A stretch of DNA of 15,061 nucleotides from Armatimonadia bacterium (GTDB lineage: Bacteria; Armatimonadota; Zipacnadia; Zipacnadales; UBA11051): contig JBDKRC010000225.1 of assembly GCA_039683575.1 (NCBI GenBank), positions 1 to 15,061 on the forward strand. The letters run 5' to 3'. Of this stretch, positions 93 through 15,061 are shown one piece after another. The position numbers and the translations under genes are program-made. The notes below the pieces were generated by a model. The model did no database searches. It was not told the DNA's origin and saw only the letters and a program-made list of their open reading frames with translations. Position 1 is the first letter of the stretch, and every line of letters starts with the position of its first letter.

Positions 93-3000
93 CTACGCCG
101 GTACCCGCAGAACATCATCTTCAAAGAACCCGGTTACGCCACTGATGCGCATCAGTTCTGAGCGCAGTTCGGACGTCATCTCCACGCGCATCTGGTCGCC
201 GAGGGTCACCAGGCGGCGGGAGCCATTGCTGCGGATTGCGAGCGCCACCGGCTGACGGCCCGTGTGACGCGACAGCGTGGTCTGAAGGTGGCGAAGAGTG
301 TCGGGTGACGCTTCCTCTACCTGTAGCTCAATGTACATCCAGGGGCCGTAGTTGCGCGGGGCCTCAGCCGGCGTCTCTTCCTCGTCCGTGGACGGGAGCT
401 GCTCCTCGGTTACGAAGCCCTGCTCGGCCTCCTGGCGCTTCTTGGCGGACGCGCTGCGGGCCTGCTCGAGCGGCATGACACGGTCACAAAGCAGCTTGCA
501 TTCATAGCGAGGCGTGCCAGCGTCCTCTTCGTCGCTGTTGTGCGCGCCTCCGGAGGAGAGCTTCTTTTCCAGCGTCCCCTCCATGATGACAATCTCGTCT
601 TTGACCACGAACTGCCCGTACTTCTCATACCCGCGTGGAAAGAGCGTGACCTCCACCGACCCGGCGAGGCCGGTGAGGGTGAAAAACATCATCTGGTCGC
701 CCTTCTTGGTTGTGTAGGGCTTTGCCTCGCTGACCATGCCCCCGATCAGCAGGCTGGTCTTGTCCTTGAACTGTGGCAGCTCTTCGATGGTCGCGGTGCA
801 GCATTTGCTCAGCTTCTCCTGCGCGCGCAGGAGCGGGTGGTCGGAGACGTACAGGCCGAGGAGTTCCTTCTCAAGCTGCAGGGCCTCGTCGTCGGACATC
901 GGCTCTACGTTGGGCAGTTGCTCGCTGATCGCGTCGTCCTCGTCACCACCAAACAGGTCATCAAACAGAGCATTCTGGCCCTTGGCGGCATCGGCCTGCT
1001 GTTTCTGGGCCGAGGCGAAGGCGCCGTCGAGGGCAGCCAACAGTGCATTGCGCTCGCCGAGATCTGAGAGCGCTCCAGCCTGGATGAGGGTCTTGATGGC
1101 AGCCTTCGCGACGTTGCGCGGGCCCATGCGCCGGCAGAAATCGTGCAGGCTGGTAAAGGGGCCGCTCTCCTGCCGCTCCGCGGTGATTTGCTCGGCGGCT
1201 GAGTGTCCGAAAGTCTTAATGGCCGCCAGACCGAAGATCACGTCGCCGTTTGTGACGGTGAAACCCGCCTCACTGGCGTTGATGGACGGCGGGCGGACCG
1301 TGATGCCCTGTCGGGCGCACTCCAACACGTATTTGGCGATCTCGCCCGTGTTGTCCATGACGCTGGTCAACTGGGCGGATATGAGCTCTGCCGGCCAGTT
1401 CGCCTTCAGGTAGGCAGTCCAGTAGGCCACGAGCCCATAGGCGGCGCTATGAGACTTGTTGAAGCCGTAGTTGGAGAAGGTCACCATGCGGTCCCAGACC
1501 TGCTGGACCGCGTCCTCCGGCACGCCGTTGTTCTTGCACCCCTCAAAGAACAGCGGCTTCATCTGCAGCATCTTGGCTTCCTGCTTCTTAGCCATGGAGC
1601 GCATGATGATCTCAGCCTGCGGCATGGAGAAGCCAGCCAGTTGCGAGGCAACCTGCATTACCTGCTCTTGATATAGGATGACCCCGTAGGTTTCCTCAAG
1701 GATGGGCTTAAGCAGCGGGTGGAGGTACTTTACCTCGGCGCCGTGGCGGCCGGCGCAGAACTCGGGAGCCGAGTCCATCGGCCCAGGGCGGTACAGTGCC
1801 ACGAGAGCGATGACATGCTCAAACTTGTTGGGGCGAAGCTCGCGCAGAAGGTTGCGCATGCCCTCGCTTTCAAGCTGGAAGACCGCCGATGTATCCCCGC
1901 GCCCGAGCAAGTCATAGGTCTTGGGGTCGTCTTTGGGGACGTTGTGGAGATCTACTTTGATCCCGTGGTTGCGCTCGATGGCCTCCAGGGCGTAGCGGAT
2001 GATGGTCAGGGTCTTGAGCCCCAGGAAGTCCATCTTGACGAGACCCACGTCTACGACGGGGTTCATCGAATACTGGGTGATGACAGCTTCCTTCTCAACC
2101 TTGAGCGGGACCACGTCGGCGAGGGGCTTGTCTGAGATCACGACGGCGGCGGCGTGGACGGAAGAGTGCCGCGTGAGACCTTCCATGCGGCCCGCAAAAT
2201 CGGCCACGCGTCGCAGTTCCGGGTCATCCTTGACGCGCTCAATGACCTCGGGGGTTTCTTTGAGGGCCTTCTCAAGCGTCCAGCCCTTGCCCTCGGGAAT
2301 CGCCTTGGCCAAATCGTTGATCTTCGACTGCTCGACCCCCAGAACGCGCCCCACATCGCGCACGGCCTGCTTGGCGCCCATGGTGTTGAAAGTGCAGACC
2401 TGGGCGACATTGCCGCGGCCGTACTTCTCCCGAACGTATTCTATGATCTCTTCACGCCGGTCATCGGGGAAGTCGAGGTCAATGTCCGGCGGGCTGACGC
2501 GCTCAGGGTTGAGCATGCGCTCAAAAATGAGCTTGTTTTCCAGCGGGTCAACTTCGGTAATACCGGTCAGGTACGAGACGATGCTGCCGGTTGCCGATCC
2601 GCGCCCCGGCCCTACGAGCATCCCCCGGCGCTTGGCCTCGGCGATGAAGTCGCTGACGATCAGGAAGTAGCCGGAGTACTTGCAGTGCTCGATGACGGAA
2701 AGCTCGTAATTCAGGCGCTCAACAACATGCGAGGGGGGCGGCGCCCCATAGCGCGGCACCAGATTGCTCTCGCAGACGTGGCGGAGATAGGTTTCAACGG
2801 TGTGGCCCTCGGGTACCTCAAAGCGCGGCAGATTCAGGTGTCCCAGGTCCAGCTTGACATTGCAGCGTTCCGCGACTTCCGCCGTGTTGGCAATCGCCTG
2901 CGGCGCCTGGGGGAAGAGCTGCAGCATCTCCTCCTCGGTGCGGACGTAGAACTTGTCCGCACCGAAGCGCAGGCGCTTGGGATCGCTGTAAAGGGAGTTG

Positions 3001-3686
3001 GTGCCCACGCAGAGCAGCACGTCGTGCAACTCCGCCTCGTCGGGCATCAGATAGTGGCAGTCATTGGTCGCGACGACTTTGGCGCCGGTCTCTCGAGAAA
3101 GCTGGAGCTTGCCTTCGTTGATCTTCGCCTGCCCCTCCAGCCCGTGCTCCATGAGTTCGAGGTAGACGTTCTCGGGGCCGTAGAGCTCCCTGAGTTGCCC
3201 CAGGTGCTGTCGCGCGCCGTCGATATCGTCGTTGAGCAAGCGGTTGCCGATCACCCCGGCCTGGCAGGCGCTGAGGCAGATCAGGCCTTCGCGATGGGCG
3301 GCGAGCAGTTCGAGGTCAACGCGGGGCTTATAGTAGAAACCCTCAAGGTGTGCGGCGGAGACCACGCGGAGCAGGTTCTGGTAGCCCTGGTTGTCGGCGG
3401 CCAGCAGGACCAGGTGGTGGAGTTCCTTCTGTCCGCGAGCGGGGTCGCGTTCGAGGCGCGAGTAGTTGGTGTAGTAGACCTCACAGCCGATGACGGGCTT
3501 GATGCCAGCCTTCTCAGCGGCCTTGTAGAAATCAATTGCGCCATACATGACGCCATGATCCGTCATGGCGACAGCGGGCATCTCCAATTCGACGCAGCGC
3601 TTCACGAGACGGTCTACACGACAGGCGCCGTCAAGCAGGCTGTATTCGGTGTGAAGGTGGAGATGGGAGAAGCCGTACTGTGACAT
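93..3686 (-). CDS. dnaE: DNA polymerase III subunit alpha
   Basis: 1197 aa. PHP motifs HLHLHTEYSLLDG, MTDHG, GCEVY, NDCHY; polymerase motifs GPGRGSATGS, FERMLNPERVSPPDIDLDF, KMDFLGL, YGFNKSH; EKELLGLYVSDHPL followed by an OB-fold region. Confidence 0.98.
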   Translation of the reverse strand: MSQYGFSHLHLHTEYSLLDGACRVDRLVKRCVELEMPAVAMTDHGVMYGAIDFYKAAEKAGIKPVIGCEVYYTNYSRLERDPARGQKELHHLVLLAADNQGYQNLLRVVSAAHLEGFYYKPRVDLELLAAHREGLICLSACQAGVIGNRLLNDDIDGARQHLGQLRELYGPENVYLELMEHGLEGQAKINEGKLQLSRETGAKVVATNDCHYLMPDEAELHDVLLCVGTNSLYSDPKRLRFGADKFYVRTEEEMLQLFPQAPQAIANTAEVAERCNVKLDLGHLNLPRFEVPEGHTVETYLRHVCESNLVPRYGAPPPSHVVERLNYELSVIEHCKYSGYFLIVSDFIAEAKRRGMLVGPGRGSATGSIVSYLTGITEVDPLENKLIFERMLNPERVSPPDIDLDFPDDRREEIIEYVREKYGRGNVAQVCTFNTMGAKQAVRDVGRVLGVEQSKINDLAKAIPEGKGWTLEKALKETPEVIERVKDDPELRRVADFAGRMEGLTRHSSVHAAAVVISDKPLADVVPLKVEKEAVITQYSMNPVVDVGLVKMDFLGLKTLTIIRYALEAIERNHGIKVDLHNVPKDDPKTYDLLGRGDTSAVFQLESEGMRNLLRELRPNKFEHVIALVALYRPGPMDSAPEFCAGRHGAEVKYLHPLLKPILEETYGVILYQEQVMQVASQLAGFSMPQAEIIMRSMAKKQEAKMLQMKPLFFEGCKNNGVPEDAVQQVWDRMVTFSNYGFNKSHSAAYGLVAYWTAYLKANWPAELISAQLTSVMDNTGEIAKYVLECARQGITVRPPSINASEAGFTVTNGDVIFGLAAIKTFGHSAAEQITAERQESGPFTSLHDFCRRMGPRNVAKAAIKTLIQAGALSDLGERNALLAALDGAFASAQKQQADAAKGQNALFDDLFGGDEDDAISEQLPNVEPMSDDEALQLEKELLGLYVSDHPLLRAQEKLSKCCTATIEELPQFKDKTSLLIGGMVSEAKPYTTKKGDQMMFFTLTGLAGSVEVTLFPRGYEKYGQFVVKDEIVIMEGTLEKKLSSGGAHNSDEEDAGTPRYECKLLCDRVMPLEQARSASAKKRQEAEQGFVTEEQLPSTDEEETPAEAPRNYGPWMYIELQVEEASPDTLRHLQTTLSRHTGRQPVALAIRSNGSRRLVTLGDQMRVEMTSELRSELMRISGVTGFFEDDVLRVPA

Positions 3687-3745: not shown

Positions 3746-4720
3746 TTAGCGAACCGGAGCAGACTGCTGCTGCACTGGCGCCGGCTGAACGGCAGGCTGA
3801 GCCGTAGGCTGTTGCGTCGGTTGGACTGTGGCCGCCGGCTGCTGCATAGGGACGGCTGGCTGCGTCTGTGTCGCTGCAGGCGGCGTAGCAGGGCTGCTGG
3901 TGGCCGCCGGGGCCTCTTCAGTCGCTGCCGGGGCAGCCTTCTCTGGGGCCACAACCTGAGCGAATGACTTCAGAAGGTTGCCTATCTCGGTCAGTTCCGC
4001 GGCGACAACCGGCCAGGCCTGTCGCTGCAGCGAGTCTTCGGCGCCGCGGGCCGCAGCCTGTGCGTTGTCAAGCGTGGCGCCGCCTGGAATCGGCTTTTGC
4101 AGGACGGCGTTCAGCGTCTGCAGGGCCGAGGCGCCATCGCCACGCGCCGTGGAGGCGCGGGCGGTCTCAATTTCTTTCAGTACATCCGGCACAAGCTCAG
4201 CGGGACGACCGCTGACGCCCGCGTCGCTGGCCATCAGAAGCTCCTGCGTCGCTCCCGGGAACTCCTTCGAGCCGATGGACTGCTGGGTGCGGATCTGGTA
4301 GACGGCACGGTCGACATTGCGGACGATGGCCCGGCCCGGCAGATCCGCGTCGAGGCTCTGCAGGACCCTCTTGAGCCGATCCAGTGCCGACTTCGTGGCG
4401 GCCGCATCGTGGGCCTCAACGGCCTTCTGCGCCTCGGTGACGGCGTCGCGAGCTACCGCGAGGTCGCGAACCACAGGCGGGTCGCCGGCCTTCTCGGCGT
4501 CGAGGGTCTGCCGCCGCTTGACCTCCTCGGCGAGCATGGCCAGGTTCTTGCCGGTGGCTTCTTGATACTGCCGCAGCTCCTGCAGGATCTGCGAATTGGT
4601 ATCTGTCTGCTGTGCTTGGCCCTGGGGCGTTGCAGAGCGCTGGCAACCGGCGAGCAGACATGCTCCCACAGCCGCCAAAATGAGCGTTACAACCATGATG
4701 CGAAACGCCGGGCGGTTCAT
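3746..4720 (-). CDS. Predicted lipoprotein, alpha-helical, with a Pro/Ala/Gln/Thr-rich C-terminal tail; function unknown
   Basis: Start moved from 4795 to ATG 4720 (MNRPAFR): it has a GAGGT Shine-Dalgarno-like motif upstream, and the 4795 ATG overlaps a -10 box. Basic N-terminus, hydrophobic stretch and lipobox LLAG-C. Co-oriented with dnaE, 59 bp upstream of it. Confidence 0.8.
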   Translation of the reverse strand: MNRPAFRIMVVTLILAAVGACLLAGCQRSATPQGQAQQTDTNSQILQELRQYQEATGKNLAMLAEEVKRRQTLDAEKAGDPPVVRDLAVARDAVTEAQKAVEAHDAAATKSALDRLKRVLQSLDADLPGRAIVRNVDRAVYQIRTQQSIGSKEFPGATQELLMASDAGVSGRPAELVPDVLKEIETARASTARGDGASALQTLNAVLQKPIPGGATLDNAQAAARGAEDSLQRQAWPVVAAELTEIGNLLKSFAQVVAPEKAAPAATEEAPAATSSPATPPAATQTQPAVPMQQPAATVQPTQQPTAQPAVQPAPVQQQSAPVR

Positions 4721-4793
4721 CAGAGGGCTACCTCGACCGTTGGGTTGGAGAGCGCGGAGAGCGGCTGCAGAGGGGTCTTTACCCGTGTGGGGC

Positions 4794-4823
4794 ATTATAA
4801 GTCAAAGGAAGCCCGAAATGCAA
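4794..4823 (-). promoter_or_regulatory. Putative sigma70-type promoter for the lipoprotein gene (possibly extending to dnaE)
   Basis: Minus strand TTGCAT (4823-4818), 18-bp spacer, perfect TATAAT (4799-4794), in an otherwise GC-rich context about 70 bp upstream of the ATG. Confidence 0.65.
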
Positions 4824-4918: not shown

Positions 4919-6037
4919 GGACAGTCACTGTCATGGGAAGACGAGAAGGGGATAGCGCAGGAGATCCAACTTGAGCGTGTGTACATTCCCGGCAACCACG
5001 ACCGCCTCTGTAACAAGCACCCGCGAGTTCGACGTTTCGTCGACCGAGTGCTTGGACTGCATCGCCCCGTGGCGGATGCTCCATTCGACTGGCAACTCAA
5101 TGATTCTGAGCATGCGGTCCTGGCGAGACACGGCCACGTTTTCGACGGGGAGAACTTCGCAGGAAGAGCACTGACGGATCCAGGGCACCTGCTGACCCCA
5201 GTCGGGGATTTGCTCACGGTCGAGATCGCCTCCACTCTGCCCGATCGGATGACAAGCATTCTCGAGTCCTTTGGTCATCCGCCCTCGCCTGAAATCACGG
5301 CAGGTCTGAAGCGGGACCTGGAGGCGATGTTCTCGGTCCCCGGCTTCAGTGCGCTGACCTGGTTCTGGAAGAGGGTGGTCCGCCGCTGGCGCGGCGGCAA
5401 ATGCTTCATTGCGGCTGTGTGGGCGTTGGCCGCTTTGCTGTGGCGCTTCGCGCGGCGTTGCCTGCAGCTCCCTCGATGGTTCGGCAGATCCTGGGGGCAG
5501 AATGTGTTGTGGGCACTGCGTTCGGCGATTGTGGTGTCGGTAGTGGCCGCCCTGCCTCTCATCGCGGCTCTCGTGTGTTGGCGAGTATCCGCCCTCGCGA
5601 TCCCGCTGGGACGGGTGCTAACCGACGGGGCCAGAGCAATCGGGGCTGAAGTCTGTGCTCTACTCCTCCTGTGGGGACCGGTCATTGTGCGCAACCCAGA
5701 CCGTTGGTTGCGCAAGGGCGCGAGAGATGATGCCAAGAGGTCCATGAAGCTTGCCCCGGACTGTGTGCGCTACATTGTCTACGGACACACGCACCATGCT
5801 CTGCAGGAGTTGCTGACAGTCTGCCCCGACGGCAGACCTATCTACTACCTCAATACGGGAACTTGGCGACAGATCATCGATCTTGCTGGAGACAATTCGG
5901 ACTTCGCCTCATACAAGACCCTTAGCTACGTGGTGGTCTACGGGCAGGCAGAGCAGGAGAGGAGACTTCGCAATGGCCAGCCACGCCAGTACTTCGAGGG
6001 CTGGGCTGGCAAACTACGCGACGAGGAGTGTTTCTGA
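4919..6037 (+). pseudogene. 5'-truncated calcineurin-like metallophosphoesterase with inserted hydrophobic segments (could still be translated from GTG 4979)
   Basis: Later motifs present: YIPGNHD, ARHGH, VYGHTH, YLNTGTW. The N-terminal DxH and GDxxD motifs are absent. The frame is open only back to TGA 4916-4918, and there is no room upstream before the divergent promoter. Confidence 0.7.
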
Positions 6038-6109
6038 CGCAGTTGCAGTGGATCGTGTGGCTCAGTTGTTGGTTCGCCAGAATAGCACCGGCTTTGGAGG
6101 TTGGCAGGC

Positions 6110-6853
6110 GTGAGCGACATGCAGACGATCATCGATGGGATGACTGACGATCAGAAGGCTGAGTTCGGCGACAGGTTCCTACGGACTTGGAGTGACCATG
6201 GCTTCGGCACGCTTAGCAAACGCGACACAGAGCTACTACTGTTCAGTTGTCTGACCGAGGTGATAGGGGAGGGGCTTCCTCGCACCAACTACGACTGGGC
6301 GCGGGCACTGCGAATCACACCTGCACGGGTGCGCAACCTGCGGCGCGATGCCTACATGCGCTTCGGAAGCCTGCTTGATGCCGATCAGGGCGTGGCTCTA
6401 CTGAGGAGGTGTCTCGCCAATGTAACCACGATGCAGGTGGATCTATCCGGGAATGGTACTGGCAGCGTGCAGATCGTGGCGGACGACCCCGTCATCGAAC
6501 TGGAACTCGAGCCGAGACTCAAAGCGTTGGGCGGGTACTATGAGTACGGCCGTAACCGGGAGTTGCTGCAGATTCCCCTGTCGAGCTTCGTTGCCGTCGT
6601 GGACACCGTCCTTGGTGTAGACAGTGAAGAGACTTTCGTGGCTGTGATGGAGAGGGTTTTGCAGGACCAAAGAGCCCGTGGCGCAGTGGACCGTGAGCTT
6701 GCCAGCAAAGCTTGGGCAGACAAGTCTGAGGGCGGCAAGATACTTCATTTCCTGAAGTTCCTCGCTCATACCTTTGCTGACAAACCTGCCAAGCTAATCG
6801 AGTATCTGGAGCCAATCATGGGAAGTCATAAGTACCAGATAGCGAAGCCGTAG
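6110..6853 (+). CDS. Hypothetical protein with an N-terminal helix-turn-helix-like segment
   Basis: Open frame of ~247 aa. GGAGG at 6096-6100 favours GTG 6110 (ATG 6119 also possible). TNYDWARALRITPARVRNLRRDA resembles an HTH. Composition is protein-like. Confidence 0.8.
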   Translation: MSDMQTIIDGMTDDQKAEFGDRFLRTWSDHGFGTLSKRDTELLLFSCLTEVIGEGLPRTNYDWARALRITPARVRNLRRDAYMRFGSLLDADQGVALLRRCLANVTTMQVDLSGNGTGSVQIVADDPVIELELEPRLKALGGYYEYGRNRELLQIPLSSFVAVVDTVLGVDSEETFVAVMERVLQDQRARGAVDRELASKAWADKSEGGKILHFLKFLAHTFADKPAKLIEYLEPIMGSHKYQIAKP

Positions 6854-7073
6854 CAGACACGCGTGGATCGCACGACGCGGGGTTGCGGGACCGCCCCAGG
6901 CAGCTGACCGTTAGGCAGTGGCCCACCGGGGTTAGTGCAAGTCTCAATTCGACACGACGCTGCTTTCCGGGTTCAGTCAGTAGGAAAGGAGCTGCAGGCC
7001 GGCGAATAGACGTACAATACCATAGACTATGTCGAGGAGCCACCCAGGCTCACCTCGTCTTGCTGGAATCAGC

Positions 7074-7101
7074 ATGGGTCATAATTCGGCTTATAGACCC
7101 A
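7074..7101. other. dif-like site 1: ATGGGTCATAA-TTCGGC-TTATAGACCCA
   Basis: 11-6-11 layout with the CATAA-N6-TTAT core of E. coli dif (GGTGCGCATAA-TGTATA-TTATGTTAAAT). Arms TGGGTC/GACCCA are complementary with one extra A. About 180 bp upstream of a Xer-like recombinase. Confidence 0.6.
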
Positions 7102-7150
7102 CTCTCCGACCCCAAATCATCCCCTGCAGTGGCGGAAGGCATCTGAAGAA

Positions 7151-7178
7151 GCGGCACATAATCACTTTTATTGTGCCC
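7151..7178. other. dif-like site 2: GCGGCACATAA-TCACTT-TTATTGTGCCC
   Basis: Same CATAA-N6-TTAT core, 77 bp after site 1. Arms GGCAC/GTGCC are complementary with one extra T at the same position as the extra A in site 1. Confidence 0.6.
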
Positions 7179-7278
7179 ACTGTATTCAGAAGCCTTTGAT
7201 CCCCCGGTTATGAACACAACTTGAGCGCGGCGATGTGTCCCCTTCCTGCTCCGGCAGACGGAAAGGATGTGCACGTAA

Positions 7279-8199
7279 GTGCAAGTGACTCTGGACACAC
7301 TCGCTCAGCAGTTTCTCCTCTATCTGCAGGCCGAACGAGGCTGCAGCCCCCTCACAGCAGCGGCCTACCGCTCCGACCTCGCCAGCTTCTTCACCCCCCT
7401 TCAGAAGACGTTCGCCGTGGAAACGCCCGACCACATCACAGTCGACATGGTCCGGTCCTGGATCGTGTCCATGCACGCGAGAGGGCTCTGCGCCGACAGC
7501 ACCGCGCGGCGTGTTGCTGGCTTCAAGAGCTTCTGGAAGTACCTGTGCGAGAACGACTTGGCGTCGCCTGCTCTGCTGCTCAAGGTACGCGTACCGAAGC
7601 GACAGCGGAGCCTGCCGCAGTATCTCAGTGCGAGCGAACTGCGCAGTCTGCTCGACGCTGCGATTGGTCAGAGAAATGCCTTCTCGGCCTTTCGCGACTA
7701 CGCCATCATGGCAACGTTCGTCTATACCGGATTGAGGCGGGCGGAACTCCTAAGCCTCAGGATAGCTGATGTTGGTCTGGCGGAGGGGGTGCTGCGGGTT
7801 GTGTCTGGCAAAGGGGGCAAGACGCGTGTCATCCCGATTGTGGCGGAACTGCGCGAGGCGTTGGCTGATTGGCTTGAGGTGCGTCGGGCAACTCCCCGTC
7901 ATGACTACCTATTCATCGCCAGCCGGGGCAACCGAATCTATGCCGGACGACTACAGATCATCTGGAAGAAGCTGCTGGGTCTGACCGGCATTGCCCGGCC
8001 CGGTGTCAGCATGCATACCCTTAGGCATTCGTTTGCCACTCTGCTCTTGCGGAGTGGACAGGCGGACCTGGTCTCGATCCAGCTGCTGCTTGGGCATAGT
8101 CGGCTGGATACGACGGCGATCTATCTGCATGTCAGTGGGCAGCAGTTGAGGAAAGCGGTGGCGGCGCACCCGCTGGCTTCTCAAGCTCCCGTGACGTGA
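7279..8199 (+). CDS. Tyrosine recombinase, XerC/XerD-like
   Basis: 306 aa. N-terminal SAM-like core-binding region (FLLYLQAERGCSPLTAAAYRSDL). Full catalytic set R153 (TGLRRAEL), K178 (GKGGKTR), H246/R249 (HTLRHSFAT), H273 (LLGH), Y282. GTG start with GGAAAGGA at 7260-7267. Confidence 0.95.
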   Translation: MQVTLDTLAQQFLLYLQAERGCSPLTAAAYRSDLASFFTPLQKTFAVETPDHITVDMVRSWIVSMHARGLCADSTARRVAGFKSFWKYLCENDLASPALLLKVRVPKRQRSLPQYLSASELRSLLDAAIGQRNAFSAFRDYAIMATFVYTGLRRAELLSLRIADVGLAEGVLRVVSGKGGKTRVIPIVAELREALADWLEVRRATPRHDYLFIASRGNRIYAGRLQIIWKKLLGLTGIARPGVSMHTLRHSFATLLLRSGQADLVSIQLLLGHSRLDTTAIYLHVSGQQLRKAVAAHPLASQAPVT

Positions 8200-8241
8200 A
8201 CCATGTTGGTGTGGTTTTCGCATCAGCACCTGCACATCGGC

Positions 8242-8375
8242 GGCGGACCTGATCATGGTACGGTAGGGCCCTTACGGCGCGCCGCTTGGCTTCTGCTTGT
8301 TGGGGCATCTGGTGCTCAGCCTTCTGCGAGCAGAGCGGCGCAAGAGTGGTGGGAGCTCCTTGCACCGTATCCGCC
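8242..8375 (+). other. Extended nested stem-loop downstream of the recombinase (candidate structured RNA or ssDNA element)
   Basis: Nested pairings: GGCGGA 8242-47/TCCGCC 8370-75; TACGGT 8259-64/ACCGTA 8364-69; AGGGCCCTTAC 8265-75/GTGGGAGCTCCT 8349-60 (imperfect, G.U); GCGCCGCT 8279-86/AGCGGCGC 8334-41; CTGCTTGT 8293-8300/GCGAGCAG 8326-33 (two G.U). Confidence 0.5.
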
Positions 8376-8417
8376 TTCGCCCACTTCTCGAGACCGGGTT
8401 CAGCCCCCAAGGAGCAG

Positions 8418-8451
8418 TATGGGGGGTACCGCATTGGCGGTACCCCCCATA
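8418..8451. repeat. Perfect 15-bp inverted repeat with 4-nt loop (34 bp total)
   Basis: TATGGGGGGTACCGC-ATTG-GCGGTACCCCCCATA, between the convergent recombinase and PDZ-protein genes. No poly-T tract on either side. Confidence 0.9.
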
Positions 8452-8511
8452 GGCGTAAAGGCAATGTATTCGGCGCAGTCATTACCGGCCTTTGCCGATA
8501 TGACGACATGG

Positions 8512-9591
8512 TTAGATGCCGAGCAGGGATGCCAGACAGGAGGCCACGTGGTCGCGAGTGAAGCCGTTGAGCGAGCGACCCTTGCCGACCGTGAAACTGT
8601 CAGTCATCGATTCGTCTAACAACTCCTCGCCTGTCGCTATATCCACGATGGTGACTTGGACCGTCAGAGTCACGGCCCATCTCAGATACTGTCCGTCAAA
8701 CCAGCATGTGTCCTCGACTTCGCGTTCCGTGCTGATCCGCATCAGGCGTGTGCAACCCAGTTGCTTTTCCAGTTCGGCGACTGTGGCGCGCTCCTTCCTT
8801 ATCTCCGACAGCAGAGCCTCCAATTCGGCGCCTCGCACGGTCTTGTCACCTACCCTCTTGAGCAGGTTCTCTGCCGCCACGGCGGTATCTTCGCCAGCGT
8901 TGATTGCCAGAGTCTGGGTCTGATAGTCGAATTCCACCTGCAGCTTCCGTTTCGCTTGAGCTTGGTGGAATTTCATGATATGCAGCGGCGTGAGTGAGAA
9001 GGTGTACGGCTCGAGTTCCTCATTGTTGCTTCCGGCCGGCTCTTCACCCAACTCTACCACTACCGAACAGCGTTGCTTGTTGCGGACGACCTCAATCTCC
9101 AGCTTGGTGTGTGGCGGCCTGGCACGAATCGCGTCTATCACCTCGGCTATTTGGCGAACTGCCTTCCCGCCAACCGACATGATCACGTCGTTGGGCTGAA
9201 GCAGGTCGGCAGCTGGTGCGCCGTCGATGATCATGTCTACAAGTATCCCGCCTTTGGGCACTCCCAGCTTCCCTCGCGTGGCGGCGTCCAAGTCAGCGAG
9301 CCGCACTCCGAGCCAACTGCGCGGGATCTTCACAGCACCGGGGCCGCGCCGTTCGAGCACGCGATTGCCATCCTTGACAGTCAGGCTGTCTGGCCGGTAG
9401 CCCAGCTTGAGATAGGGGAAGGGCGCGAGCGTGAACGGCGACCGGGCGGGAACGGTGATGGTGGTTCTAACATGGACGATCCCAGTGTCTCCCTCGGCTC
9501 TTGCGGGGGCATTGCCGAGCACGAAGAGCAAACTGATTGCAGCAACGGTGAGCACAACACTGCAGAATGATCGGTGGATACTGGGTCTCAT
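8512..9591 (-). CDS. Secreted PDZ-domain protein with a C-terminal CsgG/LpoB/FlgO-like alpha/beta region
   Basis: Start moved to ATG 9591 (MRPSIH), preceded by AGAGGAG. Signal peptide ending APARA-E. HtrA-type PDZ (WLGVRL...GGILVDMIIDGAPAADLLQPNDVIMSVGG...IEVVRN). C-terminal VQVTIVDIATGEELL pattern. 359 aa, no protease domain seen. Confidence 0.85.
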   Translation of the reverse strand: MRPSIHRSFCSVVLTVAAISLLFVLGNAPARAEGDTGIVHVRTTITVPARSPFTLAPFPYLKLGYRPDSLTVKDGNRVLERRGPGAVKIPRSWLGVRLADLDAATRGKLGVPKGGILVDMIIDGAPAADLLQPNDVIMSVGGKAVRQIAEVIDAIRARPPHTKLEIEVVRNKQRCSVVVELGEEPAGSNNEELEPYTFSLTPLHIMKFHQAQAKRKLQVEFDYQTQTLAINAGEDTAVAAENLLKRVGDKTVRGAELEALLSEIRKERATVAELEKQLGCTRLMRISTEREVEDTCWFDGQYLRWAVTLTVQVTIVDIATGEELLDESMTDSFTVGKGRSLNGFTRDHVASCLASLLGI

Positions 9592-9830
9592 GAGAGCTAC
9601 TCCTCTTTGTATTGTCACTGCCACAGGGAAAATCCGCTGCCTGTTGGCAATCGCGATAGGCAAAATCGAGCAGACCAACCGTCGCCCTGGCAGAAACATC
9701 ATGAAGATGGGACACCCCGGTCGCACTTCCTGGCAGTTCCCCCACAGGCGGCATATACCTTCTGGCGCTGAGAACTGCAGGGCCACCGGTGCTCGCCTCT
9801 CGGGTCCGGGCTGGCGGTGCGAACCGGTCG

Positions 9831-10241
9831 TCAACTCAGGGTGGCGGCGATAAGTCTGGTCGGCGACCACATCTCGGCGGCGGTCATCTGTTCGCCCGCG
9901 GAGGTACGGTCGGCAGCTGGTGGGGTGGCCCACTGGTGCATCACGCGGCTGACTTCCCGCGCCACCGCCTTGTGCACCACGAGGTCGTAGAGACGGCCGG
10001 AGCGCGTCGCCCACAACACGCGGCCGAGGTCGTCATGGTGCTCGCGGATCGTCATCGAGGGGCGAACGACCGATCCGCCGACCTGGAACCACTGCAGGCG
10101 CCCACAAGGAACGAGCGGGCCGATGTGCTCGCAAAGCAGGGCTGCCACGGCGCCCTCCATCCCCTCGACTTGCTTCGCCGTCAGGTCCGCCAGTCTGTGC
10201 TCTTCTCCGTCTTGACTAAGAAAGACAGTGATGCTTGACAT
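9831..10241 (-). CDS. Hypothetical protein (136 aa)
   Basis: ATG preceded by AAGGGAGG on the minus strand; fills the gap between the PDZ gene and the divergent ECF operon; no family recognised. Confidence 0.6.
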   Translation of the reverse strand: MSSITVFLSQDGEEHRLADLTAKQVEGMEGAVAALLCEHIGPLVPCGRLQWFQVGGSVVRPSMTIREHHDDLGRVLWATRSGRLYDLVVHKAVAREVSRVMHQWATPPAADRTSAGEQMTAAEMWSPTRLIAATLS

Positions 10242-10352
10242 TGCAGTAGCCCTCCCTTGGGCGTTGCGTGCTCTCTCATTGTCGACTGGTTAGTCGGGCG
10301 CTTGGCCCGGACGACTCGGCCCTGATTGGGAAGTACCTGATTCCAGCGGGTA

Positions 10353-10380
10353 TTGATAAAGGAGGAGTTACCATGATAAT
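10353..10380 (+). promoter_or_regulatory. Putative sigma70-type promoter upstream of the ECF operon
   Basis: TTGATA (10353-58), 16-bp spacer, GATAAT (10375-80), in a local AT-rich patch about 200 bp before the sigma ATG. The same bases also read as Shine-Dalgarno plus ATG (see findings). Confidence 0.45.
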
Positions 10381-10586
10381 GAGGAATGCGACAGAGGCGT
10401 GTGTGTTGGCGGACGTTAGCGGGAGCGTAGGGGCGATGACGAGGCTAAGCGTGCGCGGGAGAGCCGTCGTTCAATGGGCGTCCCCCAGAGTTAGCAGGCC
10501 GCGAAACCGTAGGCCAGCTTCGTGGCGCGTTTCCAGGTCTGCCTCGAGACGGGTGCTCGGGCGTAGTTCAAGGGAGTTGAGGGGAC

Positions 10587-11195
10587 ATGTTGTTCGCGTT
10601 CTTGCTCAGCGTAGTGAGAGCTGTGGTAGGTGGGCGTGGTGAAGACCTTAGGTTAGCGCACGAAGGCTCCCTTCAGGAGCTAAGCGATTACCTGGAAGCC
10701 CTGCGTCCCACCCTAACGAGCGGAATCCGCAGGGCTTATTCGTCACTGGAGGAGGCCGCAGAGGATATTGTGCAAACGGCCTTTGCCGGGTTGCTGATCA
10801 GCAACGCCGCGAGCTTCCGGCGCTACCAGGGCAAAGCGAGTTTGCAGACCTATGTCACTGGTATCGTGCGGCGCAGGGCGATTGACTTCATGCGCAAGGC
10901 TCCCGACCTTTCGGCCCCCCTTACGGACCACGAGAACCTGGTTGCCGCACCGCATGAACAGGAGCCCTTGGCTTTGGTAGGCCAGGCCGAATTATGCGAG
11001 GAGGTGCAGGCGGCGGTAGCGCAATTGCCCGAGCGGTACGGGCTGGTCATCAAGTTGTACTACTTCGCCGAGCAGGACTGCACCGAGATCGGGCTGGCGC
11101 TTGGCTGTTCGGCCAAGCGCGTCACGAGTCTGTTGGTGGAGGCCCGTCAACGGCTTCGGAAGCAGCTCTCAGGTCATTTGCCAGATTTTGCCTAA
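10587..11195 (+). CDS. ECF-family RNA polymerase sigma factor
   Basis: 202 aa. Region 2: AAEDIVQTAF...YQGKASLQTYVTGIVRRRAIDFMRK. Region 4: VAQLPERYGLVIKLYYFAEQDCTEIGLALGCSAKRVTSLLVEARQRLRK. GAGGGG upstream of the ATG. Confidence 0.93.
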   Translation: MLFAFLLSVVRAVVGGRGEDLRLAHEGSLQELSDYLEALRPTLTSGIRRAYSSLEEAAEDIVQTAFAGLLISNAASFRRYQGKASLQTYVTGIVRRRAIDFMRKAPDLSAPLTDHENLVAAPHEQEPLALVGQAELCEEVQAAVAQLPERYGLVIKLYYFAEQDCTEIGLALGCSAKRVTSLLVEARQRLRKQLSGHLPDFA

Positions 11196-11271
11196 GAGGC
11201 GTAAAGAAAGCCCGAGTCGCAGGGCGACAAGTCGCGACTAAGTTGGCAGTAGTCGAAGGAAGTGAACGCCG

Positions 11272-12339
11272 GTGAACTCGTTTTTGCCGACAGCATGCAC
11301 CAAAACCGCTCTTCAGCTCCAGTTGCTGCAAGAGGGCAGACTGGGGTCGGAGGAGCGATTACGGTTGATTTCTCACGCCCGCGGGTGCGCCTCCTGTCGG
11401 GAGACGGTCCTGGGCACGGCCGCATTGGACCGGGCTTTGAGGCAAGAAGCCTGCCGACCGTCCGGGAGCCTGGCACCTACGGACGAGTGTCCGGACGGGG
11501 AAATCCTGGCGGGTTTTGCCGACGGAGGGCTGTCAGCAGAGGAGCGGCGTCGCTGGGGAAGACACGTGGCTGAGTGCCCGGCCTGCCTCGCCGAGATCAG
11601 GGACCTACGGACCATGCTGCAACTGCGGCCACCGGCCGACAGGGCACTGGAGCAACTGGCCGCAGCAGTCCGGGAAGCTCGTGCGCCCGAGGCGCGGCGC
11701 GTTTGGACCTGGCAACCAGCGCTTGTGGTTGCAGCTGCCGCGGCGGTTCTAGTTGCGGTCATGCTATTCCGCCAGCCGGCTCCGGGCCCCCAGGGCATGC
11801 CGTCACCGGGCCCAACCGTTGCCCAGGGCCCCACCGAGGTGCCGCAGACTCCGTCCACTCCGGCGCGGCCGCCGGAGGGGCCTACGGTCGCGACCCCGGC
11901 TCCGGCCAATGTGCCACCCGCGAGCGCCCCTTCCCCGGGTCTCAGGCGGTACCTACCGCGGAAGACTGCGCCCCATGCTCCGGCCCGCGTGAGGCCCCCC
12001 GCGACCATGTTAGCGAGAACTCCCGGGCGCAACCCTCATCCCTCGCTGAGCTACGCGCTGGTCGAACATCCTGCAGCGGCCCAGTTTGTGACACACACCA
12101 ATGCCCTGCCAGATCGCAGCTCCCTGCCCACTCTGGTGGAGGGTAGCACTCGCTTGGAGCAGTTGCTTTCCGGCGAGCGGTTGCCTTCTGCTGGTGCCAA
12201 CCCGTTTCCCCGTGACAGCGGCCTGAAACTTGATGCTGGCACCACTTTGGATTTTGGCGCACACACCAACCCCCGACCCCACCCGCTGAACACCGGTGGG
12301 GCCATGCCTGCTAACCTATTGCCAGTCGAAAGGAGGTGA
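11272..12339 (+). CDS. Membrane-anchored anti-sigma factor with two zf-HC2/ZAS zinc fingers and a Pro-rich extracytoplasmic tail
   Basis: HARGCASC (H35-C42) and HVAECPAC (H98-C105), each with an upstream Cys (C9, C73). Transmembrane helix ALVVAAAAAVLVAVMLF. Directly follows the ECF sigma gene. Confidence 0.88.
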   Translation: MNSFLPTACTKTALQLQLLQEGRLGSEERLRLISHARGCASCRETVLGTAALDRALRQEACRPSGSLAPTDECPDGEILAGFADGGLSAEERRRWGRHVAECPACLAEIRDLRTMLQLRPPADRALEQLAAAVREARAPEARRVWTWQPALVVAAAAAVLVAVMLFRQPAPGPQGMPSPGPTVAQGPTEVPQTPSTPARPPEGPTVATPAPANVPPASAPSPGLRRYLPRKTAPHAPARVRPPATMLARTPGRNPHPSLSYALVEHPAAAQFVTHTNALPDRSSLPTLVEGSTRLEQLLSGERLPSAGANPFPRDSGLKLDAGTTLDFGAHTNPRPHPLNTGGAMPANLLPVERR

Positions 12340-12345
12340 AATGCT

Positions 12346-12879
12346 ATGAGAATCTTGACAGCCAGCTTGTTGTTCGCTCTAAGCCTGACGCTGGTGTGGC
12401 AGACGGCCGCGCCCGCGGAGGGCGGCTCAGATGTCCGCTTAGAGTGGGGCAAAGAGCGGCCTGCAGGTGATTCGGCTAACCGCAACCCACAACTGCAGCC
12501 CGGAGCACAGAAGCTATTGCAGCAACTGCCTCTTCTGCCTCAGACAAACAGCACGCCCAGTGGGCTGCGTACCGCCCTAAACGTGGACCAGCCCTCGTGG
12601 TTGGTGGGCAGCATCAACCAGCGCCTCACGGGCCCGGGACTTGCGACCCTGACCTCCCCCGCGTACCTGTACGCAGAGCCGCAAGGGCGGCACGAGAGTA
12701 ACGGGCACGTGAGCATCAGCGTGCCCCTACGGCTCACCGGTGCTCCCTTCTTGTGGGGAACCGCAACGAACGCCGTGCGTGGGTACGGACTGCACCGGTT
12801 GCTGCGCTCGCAGGACTCTATAGGGACCGTCGTGACAGGCGCCGTGCAGACGAATCGCGCTGAAGGAGGCCAGAAGTGA
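12346..12879 (+). CDS. Secreted hypothetical protein (177 aa)
   Basis: AGGAGGTGA Shine-Dalgarno overlapping the upstream stop; signal peptide MRILTASLLFALSLTLVWQTAAPA; stop overlaps the next GTG (GTGA). Confidence 0.8.
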   Translation: MRILTASLLFALSLTLVWQTAAPAEGGSDVRLEWGKERPAGDSANRNPQLQPGAQKLLQQLPLLPQTNSTPSGLRTALNVDQPSWLVGSINQRLTGPGLATLTSPAYLYAEPQGRHESNGHVSISVPLRLTGAPFLWGTATNAVRGYGLHRLLRSQDSIGTVVTGAVQTNRAEGGQK

Positions 12880-14819
12880 ATAAGAACGCACTGACCGAGA
12901 GGGTGCCGGCCTGGCTGCTGGTCTTCCTGCTGCTGGGGATGCTGCAGGCCGTCGCTCCGGCGGCGGCGGATGAGGAGGCGGTGGTGAAGCAGCTGGTTAG
13001 CGACGTGGCGCGCCAACTCGAGGTGGCTGTGGCGGCGGACCAAGCGTCGCAGGTTGACCTCTCCCGCGTGCGGTTGACTTACCTGCTGGCCACCGAAGGA
13101 GAACTGGCGTGGAACGCGGGGGTCACTGGCAGTGTCTTCGAAGCTGAAAACGGGCTGGCGCTCTGCCAGCCGAGGCACTCGCTGGTCACCCCCGCCGACC
13201 GTGCGCTTCCGGAGGGGGAATGGGTGGACATCACCATGGTGTTGGGAAGGTCCCTCGTGACCCGCATGTGCGAGAGCCAACCAGCACGCCTGGCGGCGGT
13301 CATGGGTCACGAGTTCGGCCATCTGACGCTGGGCCATCTGGGAACGAGTATCACTGCCGGGACGGACATGCTGAAGGCCGCCAGCCTCACTCGGGAACGT
13401 GAGTTTGCCGCCGACCAGGCCGGGGTGCGGTATGCGGAGGCCGCTGGCTACGTTAACGCGCTCTCGGCGGCCACCGATTGTTGGGTGCGACTGAGTGAGG
13501 TTCGCGGGAACACCACTCCCCTCGAACCAACAACCGCCTTTCATGACCACCCGACCAACCTGGAGCGCGCGGCGGAGCTGCAACGTGACCCCAAGCGACG
13601 AGAGCAGTGGCGAGCCGCCTTGACGTTCGAGAACGGGGTCATGTGCCTCCAACTGGGCGAATGGGAACCGGCCCAGATCTGCTTCACGAGCGTTCTGAAG
13701 CAGTTCAAGGACAGTCCCGAGACCCTGACTAACCTTGGCTACGCCAAGATGATGTCCTTCTACGCCGGACTGCCGGTCGTGGAACGGCGGAAGATTGGCG
13801 GTGAGGTCAGTTGCCTTGCCTTCGCCACCGTGCGCCCGGTCATCCGGGGCGGAACCCAGACCCAGAAGACGCCCCTACAGCAGGCTATTGGGCACTACCG
13901 GGCGGCCCTGAAGATCGCCCCGGAGTTCCTGCCGGCCAAGTCGAGCCTGGGGGCCGCGCTGCTGATCAACCCAGACGCCTCCGTCGCGGAACTCAACGAG
14001 GCCGCGGCCCTGCTGGACGCCGTTGCCGTCCAGGCAGATAAGCGGCCTGGCGATGAAGCGACCCTGGCCGATGCGAGGGCCAACTTGGCTCTGGCGAAGC
14101 AGCGACTGGGCGGGCCGGAAGCGGGGCGCCTGGAATACCAAGATGCCTACCCCTTGCTCGAGGCGCGCAACGCCGTGCCCTTGGCCTTCAAGGCGAACTA
14201 CGCCTCCTCACTCGTTGCCTCAGCGGTGCGAGCAGACTGGGAGATGGCAGAGTCGTTGCTCCGGGACTACCTGACGCGCACCTCGCCGGAGAGCTACTAC
14301 TACCAGGTGGCGGCGCGTGACTGGGGGCTTGTGTGTGGGAAGCTCGGACGTCCCGCGGGCAAGGTCCCGGCGCCCGAGGCCCTGACCTGGCTGCCCGGCA
14401 CTCACCTGACAGTCCCCGCCGGCGGAAGTCTGTTTCCGCAGGAGCCCTGGGCTGAGGCTAAGGAAGCGCTGGCCCCATACAAGGCACTAATCGTGCCTGC
14501 CGAGAACGATGGTACTAACTTCACCTGCGTCTGCTCAGACCTGGGGCTGACACTGCGGGTCTCACGCGGCGCTGTGAGGGTGATCCTGCTCAGCGCCGAG
14601 ACCTCCCCCGCAATCACTCTCAAGAGCGATCGCGAGGGACTGGGACCCAAACTGTCGCTGAAGGTCGGCCAGCCACTGTCAAACCCCGCGGAACTGGGTC
14701 TGATGACTGATCCGCTGACCATCGGCAGCGACAAATACAAGCTCTACCGCCAGGTCGGCATTGCTCTGAAGTTCGACGACCAAGATCGCATCGCCGGGAT
14801 CGCCCTGATCTCTGGCTAA
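12876..14819 (+). CDS. Secreted M48-family zinc metallopeptidase with TPR-like repeats and an unrecognised C-terminal beta-rich domain
   Basis: Signal peptide; AAVMGHEFGHLTLGH (HExxH), REREFAADQAG (third ligand), HDHPTNLER; TPR-like helices AQICFTSVLKQFKDSPETLTNLGYA and AIGHYRAALKIAPEFLPAKSSLGAAL; GAAGGAGG upstream. Confidence 0.9.
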   Translation: MNKNALTERVPAWLLVFLLLGMLQAVAPAAADEEAVVKQLVSDVARQLEVAVAADQASQVDLSRVRLTYLLATEGELAWNAGVTGSVFEAENGLALCQPRHSLVTPADRALPEGEWVDITMVLGRSLVTRMCESQPARLAAVMGHEFGHLTLGHLGTSITAGTDMLKAASLTREREFAADQAGVRYAEAAGYVNALSAATDCWVRLSEVRGNTTPLEPTTAFHDHPTNLERAAELQRDPKRREQWRAALTFENGVMCLQLGEWEPAQICFTSVLKQFKDSPETLTNLGYAKMMSFYAGLPVVERRKIGGEVSCLAFATVRPVIRGGTQTQKTPLQQAIGHYRAALKIAPEFLPAKSSLGAALLINPDASVAELNEAAALLDAVAVQADKRPGDEATLADARANLALAKQRLGGPEAGRLEYQDAYPLLEARNAVPLAFKANYASSLVASAVRADWEMAESLLRDYLTRTSPESYYYQVAARDWGLVCGKLGRPAGKVPAPEALTWLPGTHLTVPAGGSLFPQEPWAEAKEALAPYKALIVPAENDGTNFTCVCSDLGLTLRVSRGAVRVILLSAETSPAITLKSDREGLGPKLSLKVGQPLSNPAELGLMTDPLTIGSDKYKLYRQVGIALKFDDQDRIAGIALISG

Positions 14820-14844
14820 ACCACAAAGGAATGCGTGAACTCAG

Positions 14845-15061
14845 ATGACTTACCGAACGACGACTCGCCTGCTACTAACGATCGCCCTGGCACTTGCCCT
14901 GGGTAGCCTGCTGGCCGTGCCAGCCTCGGCCGCCAGCCTTGCGGAACTGATGAGGAACTCCGGCATCAAGTATAGCGGCCCCGACAGCAACGGCGTTTAC
15001 CAGATCGAGTACGACGGTGACAACGTGCCGCTGATTCAGGTGAATGTGGCGCTTGCCGGAG
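14845..15061 (+). CDS. Secreted protein, partial (runs off the window end)
   Basis: ATG 14845 opens MTYRTTTRLLLTIALALALGSLLAVPASA-ASLAELMRNSGIKYSGPDSNGVYQIEYDGDNVPLIQVNVALAG with no stop; signal peptide with A-S-A cleavage motif; 25 bp after the peptidase stop. Confidence 0.8.
   Translation, partial: MTYRTTTRLLLTIALALALGSLLAVPASAASLAELMRNSGIKYSGPDSNGVYQIEYDGDNVPLIQVNVALAG

Follow-up and report, generated by a model that had tools for sequence, protein, structure and literature searches.

The DNA analyzed here, referred to as the window, is the entire contig C225 (JBDKRC010000225.1; 15,061 bases) of the Armatimonadia bacterium genome assembly GCA_039683575.1, which consists of 352 contigs and 6,231,525 bases, is 96% complete and is designated G000 in this study. 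The window carries a gene for a 306-aa tyrosine recombinase that is preceded by two dif-like sites, one of which copies the rnpB 3' terminus (rnpB being the gene for RNase P RNA). We conclude that the segment from 7083 to 8199, comprising an attachment (att) core, a presumed accessory site and the integrase gene, is very probably the integration module of a family of integrative islands that target the rnpB 3' end. Related genomes are numbered G001 onwards, and their contigs are given after a colon.

Results

Site 1 is a copy of the rnpB 3' end

The module contains the following features:

7083–7107 (+): att core AATTCGGCTTATAGACCCACTCTCC, which copies the final 25 nucleotides (nt) of RNase P RNA, the 3' strand of helix P1
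7085–7090 (+): presumed 6-bp overlap TTCGGC, within the att core
7091–7102 (+): right arm TTATAGACCCAC, within the att core
7152–7180 (+): site 2, CGGCACATAA-TCACTT-TTATTGTGCCCAC, its arms like those of rnpB and site 1, its centre different
7220–7229 (+): conserved upstream block CTTGAGCGCG (TCCTGAGCGC in relatives), from an alignment of 11 loci
7252–7290 (+): leader, with a Shine-Dalgarno sequence GGAAAGGA (7260–7267) in a hairpin-prone stretch (fold z −3.1) and the GTG start at 7279
7279–8199 (+): tyrosine recombinase, 306 aa, GTG start (PF00589 and PF02899)

The original prediction for this locus, which was made from the sequence by a model, had placed two dif-like sites upstream of the recombinase gene. 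A pair of CATAA-N6-TTAT sites, 77 bp apart, is indeed present there. The motif occurs five times on both strands of the 6,231,525-base assembly; as one palindromic site is counted on both strands, this corresponds to four distinct sites, two of them in the window. Two such sites only 77 bp apart are far beyond chance. The remaining sites (C119:414–448 and C239 at about 18321) are AT-rich and look like true chromosomal dif candidates.

The pair had also been said to match no known model. This no longer holds, as site 1 (GGGTCATAA-TTCGGC-TTATAGACCCAC, 7076–7102) is a copy of the rnpB 3' end, i.e., the att core of an integrative element. Positions 7080–7107 are 96% identical to the last 27–28 nt of rnpB in G006 and G010 (blastn), and site 1 would pair perfectly, as judged by eye, with the conserved 5' end (AGAGTGGGTC) of four rnpB genes in the order. 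In G023 and G006, the DNA immediately to the left of the site continues into a complete RNase P RNA gene. The element carries the 3' end of its target with it: the block AAYTCGGCTTATAGACNCRCTCTCC lies 195–210 bp before the integrase start in all ten homologue loci fetched, and the same block precedes a second, stop-containing family member on G000:C55. Over the 25-nt target, 20 nt are exact or have one mismatch in the five genomes examined.

Neither the core nor either right arm was found a second time in the window. A genome-wide search for the core returned C55 alone, plus a copy with a 1-nt deletion on C329 (by eye). The C55 module (site at 2864, − strand) has an in-frame TGA and an extra partial rnpB-end copy about 160 bp upstream, while the C329 module (site before 5100, + strand), with the 1-nt deletion in its core, includes the third family member of this genome. 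The left arm of site 1 in the window, GGGTCATAA, makes the site nearly symmetric; an rnpB arm would be GGCACAGAA. The same arm is found in copies of G033 and G035 that do not adjoin rnpB, and such a symmetric arm would fit junctions inside arrays or at secondary sites.

The integrase clade is associated with rnpB across the order

RNase P RNA (RF00010) was detected above cut-off in 39 of 67 genomes. An rnpB locus was considered evaluable when at least ~550 bp of downstream DNA was available (n = 25). At 18 of these 25 loci of the order, a family integrase lies co-oriented within ~250 bp 3' of rnpB (G006, G010, G023, G019, G018, G028, G015, G005, G013, G024, G021, G032, G044, G002, G064, G055, G047 and G046), a count that takes in intact genes, pseudogenes and fragments. 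For the first six of those listed (G006, G010, G023, G019, G018 and G028), Rfam places RF00010 directly upstream of the integrase.

The same arrangement was seen in another family of the phylum, represented by G168, with rnpB at 19–376 and the integrase at 556–1443 of the locus (L168, on G168:C89). Between the two genes (~400–470), L168 has an inverted repeat of 13 bp, AAGATATAACCCC ... GGGGTTATATCTT, whose halves are separated by ~28 nt, as well as a second GACAGAACCC motif; this AT-richer subfamily seems to have its own accessory sites.

Thirteen more rnpB loci could not be counted, as the contig stops within 450 bp after rnpB (G034, G030, G016, G048, G040, G060, G017, G004, G038, G054, G050, G020 and G033). 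Such contig ends would be expected if short-read assemblies break at a module repeated behind rnpB, and they probably arise in this way; the "absence" of rnpB from assemblies of this kind, G000 included, may be an artefact. A match on C151 was considered as the rnpB gene of G000 and was rejected, being coding sequence.

Integration junctions and arrays in relatives

Junctions of the attR type, in which the left arm of the element is followed by CTCGGC and then by a different native-type end (TTACGGAC...), are present on G023:C3 and G033:C28. The left-arm region of G023:C3, ~100 bp long, recurs in the G033:C2 copy, where it stands before site 1. Because attL and attR of G023 have AACTCGGCTTA in common (by eye), the crossover would lie in or adjoining the 6-bp centre. 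The rnpB gene of G001 has the end TTACAGATCC, with no family integrase in the ~1.3 kb downstream.

One contig of G018 (C46) carries a tandem array. Three exact, co-oriented copies of the rnpB end were found at 48144 (in rnpB itself), 91571 and 99977, each 160–230 bp before an integrase gene (at 48378, 91734 and 100137, respectively). In a separate comparison of three module copies with 87–93% nucleotide identity, homology extended only from site 1 to about the integrase stop. Therefore, the shared part is the att and integrase module, and the cargo differs.

In G033:C2 (locus L034), the module is bracketed by inverted repeats of ~160 bp (4177–4340 and 5613–5778, 82% identical). These repeats hold further dif-like sites, and one of them is the left-arm region of the element; copies are present on G033:C31 and G033:C50.

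Alternative junctions at 7107 in metagenomes

Logan contigs of four metagenome runs from four studies (X1, X2, X3 and X6) were aligned to positions 5500–9800. The left flank is present at 95–99+% identity and reaches 7107 in X1, X3 and X6, the X2 contig ending at 7051. The X3 contig ends at 7107, and those of X1 and X6 run into other sequence beyond it; by eye, X1 continues with sequence similar to the right-arm region of the G024/G038 subfamily. Because the left flank exits at 7107 into alternative partners, 7083–7107 is a recombination swap point between interchangeable partners.

X2 also contains a ~92% variant of 7080–7188 behind a different left flank, and an integrase at 88% that diverges at 8183. 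Two records (X1 and X6), apparently rnpB ends of other organisms, match only from 7076/7083 to 7112/7115, and the flanks of the X1 record match the G002 rnpB locus (by eye). No contig of the four runs aligned to 8236–9800, which is taken as uninformative about absence.

The recombinase belongs to a clade of its own

The gene had been described as intact, XerC/D-like, 306 aa in length and without the IntI-specific insertion, and this description was borne out. The open reading frame (ORF) at 7279–8199 (+), with a GTG start, matches PF00589 (E 3.6e-36) and PF02899 (E 7.1e-16). With model scores taken as the test for the IntI insertion, TIGR02249 gives 101.8 bits (cut-off 265) and NF011946 gives 68.2 bits (cut-off 435), and both models match the protein in two stretches. 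The Pfam domains are a SAM-like core-binding domain and the catalytic domain, and 306 aa leaves no space for an extra N-terminal arm-binding domain. R153/R154, K178, H246, R249, H273 and Y282 are invariant in an alignment of 13 family sequences; they were assigned by eye to the catalytic R-K-H-R-H/W-Y roles by comparison with the usual motifs. The catalytic domain and these residues place the window protein in the tyrosine recombinase superfamily.

Neither Xer equivalog cut-off is reached by this protein (XerC, TIGR02224, 235.7 bits vs 335.15; XerD, TIGR02225, 218.3 vs 329.6), nor is that of the XerS model (78.4 bits vs 267). A search for canonical Xer proteins elsewhere in the genome, which the original prediction had suggested, returned a 296-aa protein on C302 that passes the XerD cut-off (335.1 vs 329.6); no XerC above the equivalog cut-off was found in the G000 assembly. 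No attC-like repeated elements are present in 6700–8700, and the neighbours are ordinary genes of 250–650 aa that do not form a cassette array.

When 41 related genomes were searched, the best matches in three genomes of the same genus were 36–38% identical. The nearest relatives, at 67–68% identity, are those of G033 (two copies), G023 and G006, which are from other genera and belong to two families. Across a 151-genome sample of the phylum, 11 genomes gave matches with E values of 1e-50 or better, ten in the order (G000 included) and one outside. The family has three members in G000 and at least eight members in G033. A tree of 37 proteins groups 17 generic Xer proteins, the XerD of G000 among them, in one clade (97/98), and the window protein falls into a separate 10-row clade (100/98) in which five rnpB-adjacent and five non-adjacent copies are mixed. 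A wider search for related loci, of which 80 were kept, yielded 79 generic Xer proteins at 30–37% identity (the patterns fell on catalytic motifs) and one family member at 50% identity, in a record titled "candidate division WS1 bacterium".

Because the equivalog scores are low, a true XerD is encoded on C302, the distribution is patchy and the clade is separate, the recombinase is not a vertically inherited host Xer. The possibility that it is simply the vertical xerC or xerD, which the original prediction had itself raised, is thereby answered in the negative.

Among solved structures, the best sequence match of the recombinase is PDB 9i5v chain 14 (E 7e-42, residues 4–303). This chain of 401 residues is labelled "Ribosome-associated translation inhibitor RaiA", a label that looks out of keeping with a full-length match to a tyrosine recombinase. 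Structures of XerH and XerA are also among the PDB matches.

Site 2 and the leader

In 13 of 13 aligned family loci, site 2 stands at a fixed distance from site 1, with ATAA invariant and ACATAA nearly so. The arms of site 2 in the window match the rnpB site of G010 at 10/11 and 12/15 positions, and the two sites disagree at five of the six central bases (by eye). The centre of site 2 is not YTCGGC in any of the 13 rows. We infer that site 2 is presumably an accessory integrase-binding site that does not recombine with site 1 or rnpB and that has a role in assembly, direction or autoregulation. Other subfamilies have different inverted-repeat sites at the same place, which suggests co-evolution with the protein.

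The search for conserved paired motifs and covarying stems that had been proposed as a check was run on the 13 loci, with a divided outcome. The sequence itself is conserved (TCGGCTTATAGAC; ATAA), and the pairing between the arms is not: 61.9% of the cells are paired, a value also attained by 495 of 500 shuffles, and covariation scores 0.082 vs a shuffled mean of 0.098. As single strands, sites 1 and 2 fold weakly (−5.6 and −4.7 kcal/mol, with z values of −2.7 and −2.4, respectively).

The leader is kept in relatives, and both sides of its flanking stem vary (for example, GTGCACA/TGTGCAC vs GCACACA/TGTGTGC, by eye). Directly preceding the GTG start, and in frame with it, is a mini-ORF of three codons (ATG TGC ACG TAA). 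The leader hairpin and the mini-ORF may provide translational control of the integrase.

Flanks, neighbouring genes and genomic setting

The other features of the window are as follows:

93–3686 (−): dnaE (Pfam)
3746–4795 (−), 4979–6037 (+) and 6101–6853 (+): three genes without a family in the Pfam scan
6854–7082 (unstranded): left flank, non-coding, with the left arm of site 1 (GGGTCATAA, 7076–7084) at its right-hand end
8418–8451 (unstranded): palindrome (15 + 4 + 15) between the convergent integrase and PDZ genes; single-stranded DNA fold −20.7 kcal/mol, z −7.5
8512–10014 (−): PDZ protein (Pfam), convergent with the integrase gene
8512–15061 (unstranded): probable cargo, consisting of the PDZ protein, a pair of extracytoplasmic function (ECF) sigma factor and zf-HC2 anti-sigma factor, and an M48/TPR peptidase (Pfam); the right end is not reached

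The gene types that the original prediction listed as missing agree with these data, and the truncation that it gave for one neighbouring gene is putative. Its non-coding flanks of ~425 and ~310 bp measure 425 bp (6854–7278) and 312 bp (8200–8511). The tRNA scan of the window was negative, and no second recombinase, excisionase, phage or conjugation family was found among the main ORFs of the window and the small flank ORFs scanned. The small flank ORFs (8132–8509 −, 8203–8619 +, 6883–7146 + and others) have no Pfam match at E <0.01, and ORF 8132–8509 (−), the sole flank ORF scanned against PHROGs, has no match there and offers no excisionase candidate. Scanning 6800–8600 revealed no consensus promoter or terminator. 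An Rfam scan of 6000–9500 at E values up to 1 gave two chance eukaryotic matches alone, and no RNA family accounts for the flanks.

The synteny of dnaE and the 349-aa gene is kept in G001–G004, and the next gene in G002 and G003 corresponds to contig C56 of G000. When the same-genus genomes were compared for an empty site of the window insertion, synteny moved to C56 after the 349-aa gene, and no exact boundary could be drawn. Neither the 250-aa protein nor the M48 protein was found in G001–G004 with these queries, and the PDZ protein was matched in these genomes over its PDZ part only. Because synteny shifts to C56 and the 250-aa and M48 proteins were not found in G001–G004, the DNA from ~4800 to the contig end is accessory. 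The M48/TPR peptidase gene (12876–14819) has a 42%-identical paralogue at G000:C302:2100–4028, on the same contig as the host XerD; this query detected neither paralogue in the four nearest genomes.

The left flank (6854–7082) has no similarity to the flanks of homologue loci and belongs to the left-hand partner of the junction, not to the integrase module. Overall, the upstream flank is not unusually structured (fold z −1.6).

On the downstream side, the perfect 34-bp repeat that had been noted is the palindrome at 8418–8451, with 15-nt arms and a 4-nt loop. The nested rod of ~135 nt survives only in part: it appears solely within the minimum-free-energy fold of 8200–8511, and the centroid keeps little beyond the palindrome. 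This region is unique in the genome, and its folds (z −2.9 on the + strand and −3.7 on the − strand) are somewhat better than those of shuffled sequences, mainly through the palindrome. Its structures are not conserved in any of the 10 homologue loci, the downstream regions of which are unrelated. The palindrome, being locus-specific and outside the conserved module, is probably a terminator-like hairpin without a T-run.

Discussion

We propose that the integrase would bind a pair of inverted arms that flank a 6-bp overlap, YTCGGC, in the element site as well as in the near-identical rnpB end (GGCACAGAA-YTCGGC-TTAYAGAYCCAC), with strand exchange taking place at YTCGGC. After integration, the right arm of the element would supply a new 3' strand for helix P1 and RNase P RNA would stay whole, the native rnpB end being displaced to the opposite end of the island, where it forms attR. 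Through successive integrations, tandem arrays would arise, in which older units keep an rnpB-end copy and an integrase and no longer adjoin rnpB. The window copy would be such a unit away from rnpB, with its core joined leftward to unrelated, strain-variable DNA beside dnaE; in other populations, this core acts as the point at which other modules are exchanged. Site 2, with rnpB-like arms and a different overlap, most likely binds the integrase without recombining and would act as an accessory or autoregulatory site.

Several observations weigh against this model. The window does not contain rnpB, and a search of the assembly with the covariance model and by blastn with the genes of four relatives did not find it; integration at rnpB is therefore putative for the window genome itself. 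Seven of the 25 evaluable rnpB loci have no downstream family integrase by tblastn (G011, G025, G049, G061, G016:C98, G012 and G001), and the rnpB-adjacent integrases of G010, G024, G028, G002 and G064 are pseudogenes or fragments, which makes many of the copies fossils. The site in the window is complete and nearly symmetric, with a left arm that is not derived from rnpB, and its left neighbours enter conserved dnaE synteny within 2.3 kb, something that a simple rnpB array does not predict. To account for the symmetric site and the dnaE synteny, one has to assume a secondary site, a rearrangement or a mis-join. In the four metagenome runs, no contig bridges 7107 into the right side of the window, so that the exact junction is unconfirmed and a mis-join is possible. 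No attR, excisionase or transfer genes of the window element were found up to the contig end, and the role given to site 2 is read from its sequence pattern.

One might suppose that the ~1.1–1.2 kb unit of site 1, site 2 and integrase is the whole element, hopping as a circle between rnpB-end copies, and that the neighbouring genes are not cargo. This would account for the end of homology among copies at about the integrase stop (the 88% relative in X2 diverging at 8183), for the many site copies in G033 (14 matches to a 16-mer vs 2 in the control) and for G033:C11, where an integrase lies between two inverted core copies ~1.9 kb apart. However, we consider it unlikely. In the window and in most loci, the sequence after the integrase stop contains neither a second core nor a half-site, attR sites were found on other contigs or tens of kb away, and the units of the G018 array measure 8–43 kb. 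Common integration modules with varying cargo are, moreover, normal for island families.

It is quite improbable that the locus is domesticated or fossil, i.e., an inactive relic or a system kept by the host for inversion or regulation, with the variety of junctions reflecting old strain differences. The many pseudogenes among rnpB-adjacent relatives, the failure to find an excisionase or attR in the window, and the fact that the exact junction was not seen in other runs would be in line with such a state. On the other hand, the ORF is intact with all catalytic residues, the att core copies the rnpB end, and the distribution within the genus is patchy. In addition, left flanks that are near-identical (99+%) are joined to different right partners across samples, which implies recent exchange. 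The module may be active at present.

The original prediction had envisaged a self-contained mobile or gene-capture element whose recombinase recognizes folded single-stranded twin hairpins, as in attC or the attP of CTX phage, or works with an associated RNA. The conserved mobile module of gene and upstream sites stands; the structure-defined mechanism does not, and we regard it as very improbable. Each site is an imperfect palindrome with a weak single-stranded DNA fold, and the downstream flank beats its shuffles. However, neither hairpin shows arm covariation in the 13 loci, where the sequence is conserved instead; site 1 is explained by its identity with rnpB; there is no Rfam match; and the downstream structures are unique to the locus. 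A host XerC/XerD that resolves chromosome dimers, or a lone Xer doing so at a dif beside its gene (as XerS/difSL), can be dismissed: although XerC and XerD are the best-scoring profile names, CATAA-N6-TTAT is shared with dif and no XerC above cut-off was found in the assembly, the scores are far under the equivalog cut-offs, a true XerD is on C302, the family is multi-copy (three in G000, at least eight in G033) without a close same-genus counterpart and forms a separate clade, and the site is an rnpB end and not an AT-rich terminus site.

The rnpB-targeting islands proposed here can be compared with several known systems. XerS/difSL and XerH/difH consist of a single recombinase and an adjacent site; they are vertically inherited, present once per genome, and resolve chromosome dimers. 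The window system shares with them a simple Xer-type protein and a site of two inverted arms and a short centre beside the gene, but its clade is patchily distributed, occurs in several copies per genome, is linked to rnpB and is delimited by island junctions. Accessory core-type sites are known from the direct repeats of integron attI and from DR1 and DR2 of the TnpI internal resolution site in Tn4430. As in those cases, extra copies of the recognition motif lie beside the crossover site and the protein has no arm-binding domain, the binding of site 2 being putative here; unlike them, the protein is not IntI, and there is no cassette array or transposon end. Integrative mobile elements exploiting Xer (IMEX), such as CTX phage and the gonococcal genetic island (GGI), use the host XerCD at dif. 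A dif-like attachment sequence and Xer-type chemistry are common to both, whereas the present element encodes its own recombinase and targets rnpB instead of dif, and nothing favours a folded single-stranded attP.

Williams reportedly described, in 2002, the integration of elements at tRNA and transfer-messenger RNA (tmRNA) 3' ends by tyrosine integrases. Overall, the present system fits this known model of tyrosine-integrase islands in the 3' ends of stable-RNA genes, with an unusual target and a simple Xer-like integrase. Islands and prophages with tyrosine integrases at tRNA/tmRNA 3' ends (the Islander type) are treated in PMC4383910. As in islands of this type, the integrase adjoins the target, a replacement 3' end is carried, the displaced native fragment lies at the far end, and accretion is in tandem. 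The differences from that type are the target (rnpB), a 306-aa Xer-like integrase without space for an arm domain, a near-symmetric dif-like core, and a window copy located away from the target.

Closer in target type is phage phiEf11, which, according to PMC12540744, integrates into ffs, the 4.5S RNA gene, with an identity segment of ~27 nt. In both cases, a stable-RNA gene other than a tRNA gene serves as attB, and the segment here is 25–28 nt; the gene, the host phylum and the type of element differ. The introduction of that 2025 paper names tRNA/tmRNA and csRNA as the known non-coding RNA targets and calls ffs "novel", and "rnpB" does not occur in its text (PMC12540744). Our search of the full-text literature returned no paper describing rnpB as an integration target; island databases (TIGER/Islander) or supplements may list such cases.

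A more far-reaching scheme, which we put forward tentatively and hold to be doubtful, is that: a Xer-derived lineage uses rnpB as its landing site throughout the order, which is uncultured; extra core-type sites, of which site 2 is one, alone give ordered and directional recombination, with no arm-binding domain or excisionase; and copies of the rnpB end, scattered across the chromosome by the integrase, serve as secondary pads for cassette-like island swaps.

With the islands proposed here, an essential ribozyme gene, rnpB, joins the short list of stable-RNA integration targets. Their presence explains why rnpB is missing or located at contig ends in many of these metagenome-assembled genomes, and it means that lone "XerC/XerD" annotations with a nearby dif-like site can be island integrases. 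The combination of a small integrase free of an arm domain and a 25-nt target conserved across the order could serve as a model for the control of directionality without accessory proteins, and it is also a candidate tool for site-specific integration.

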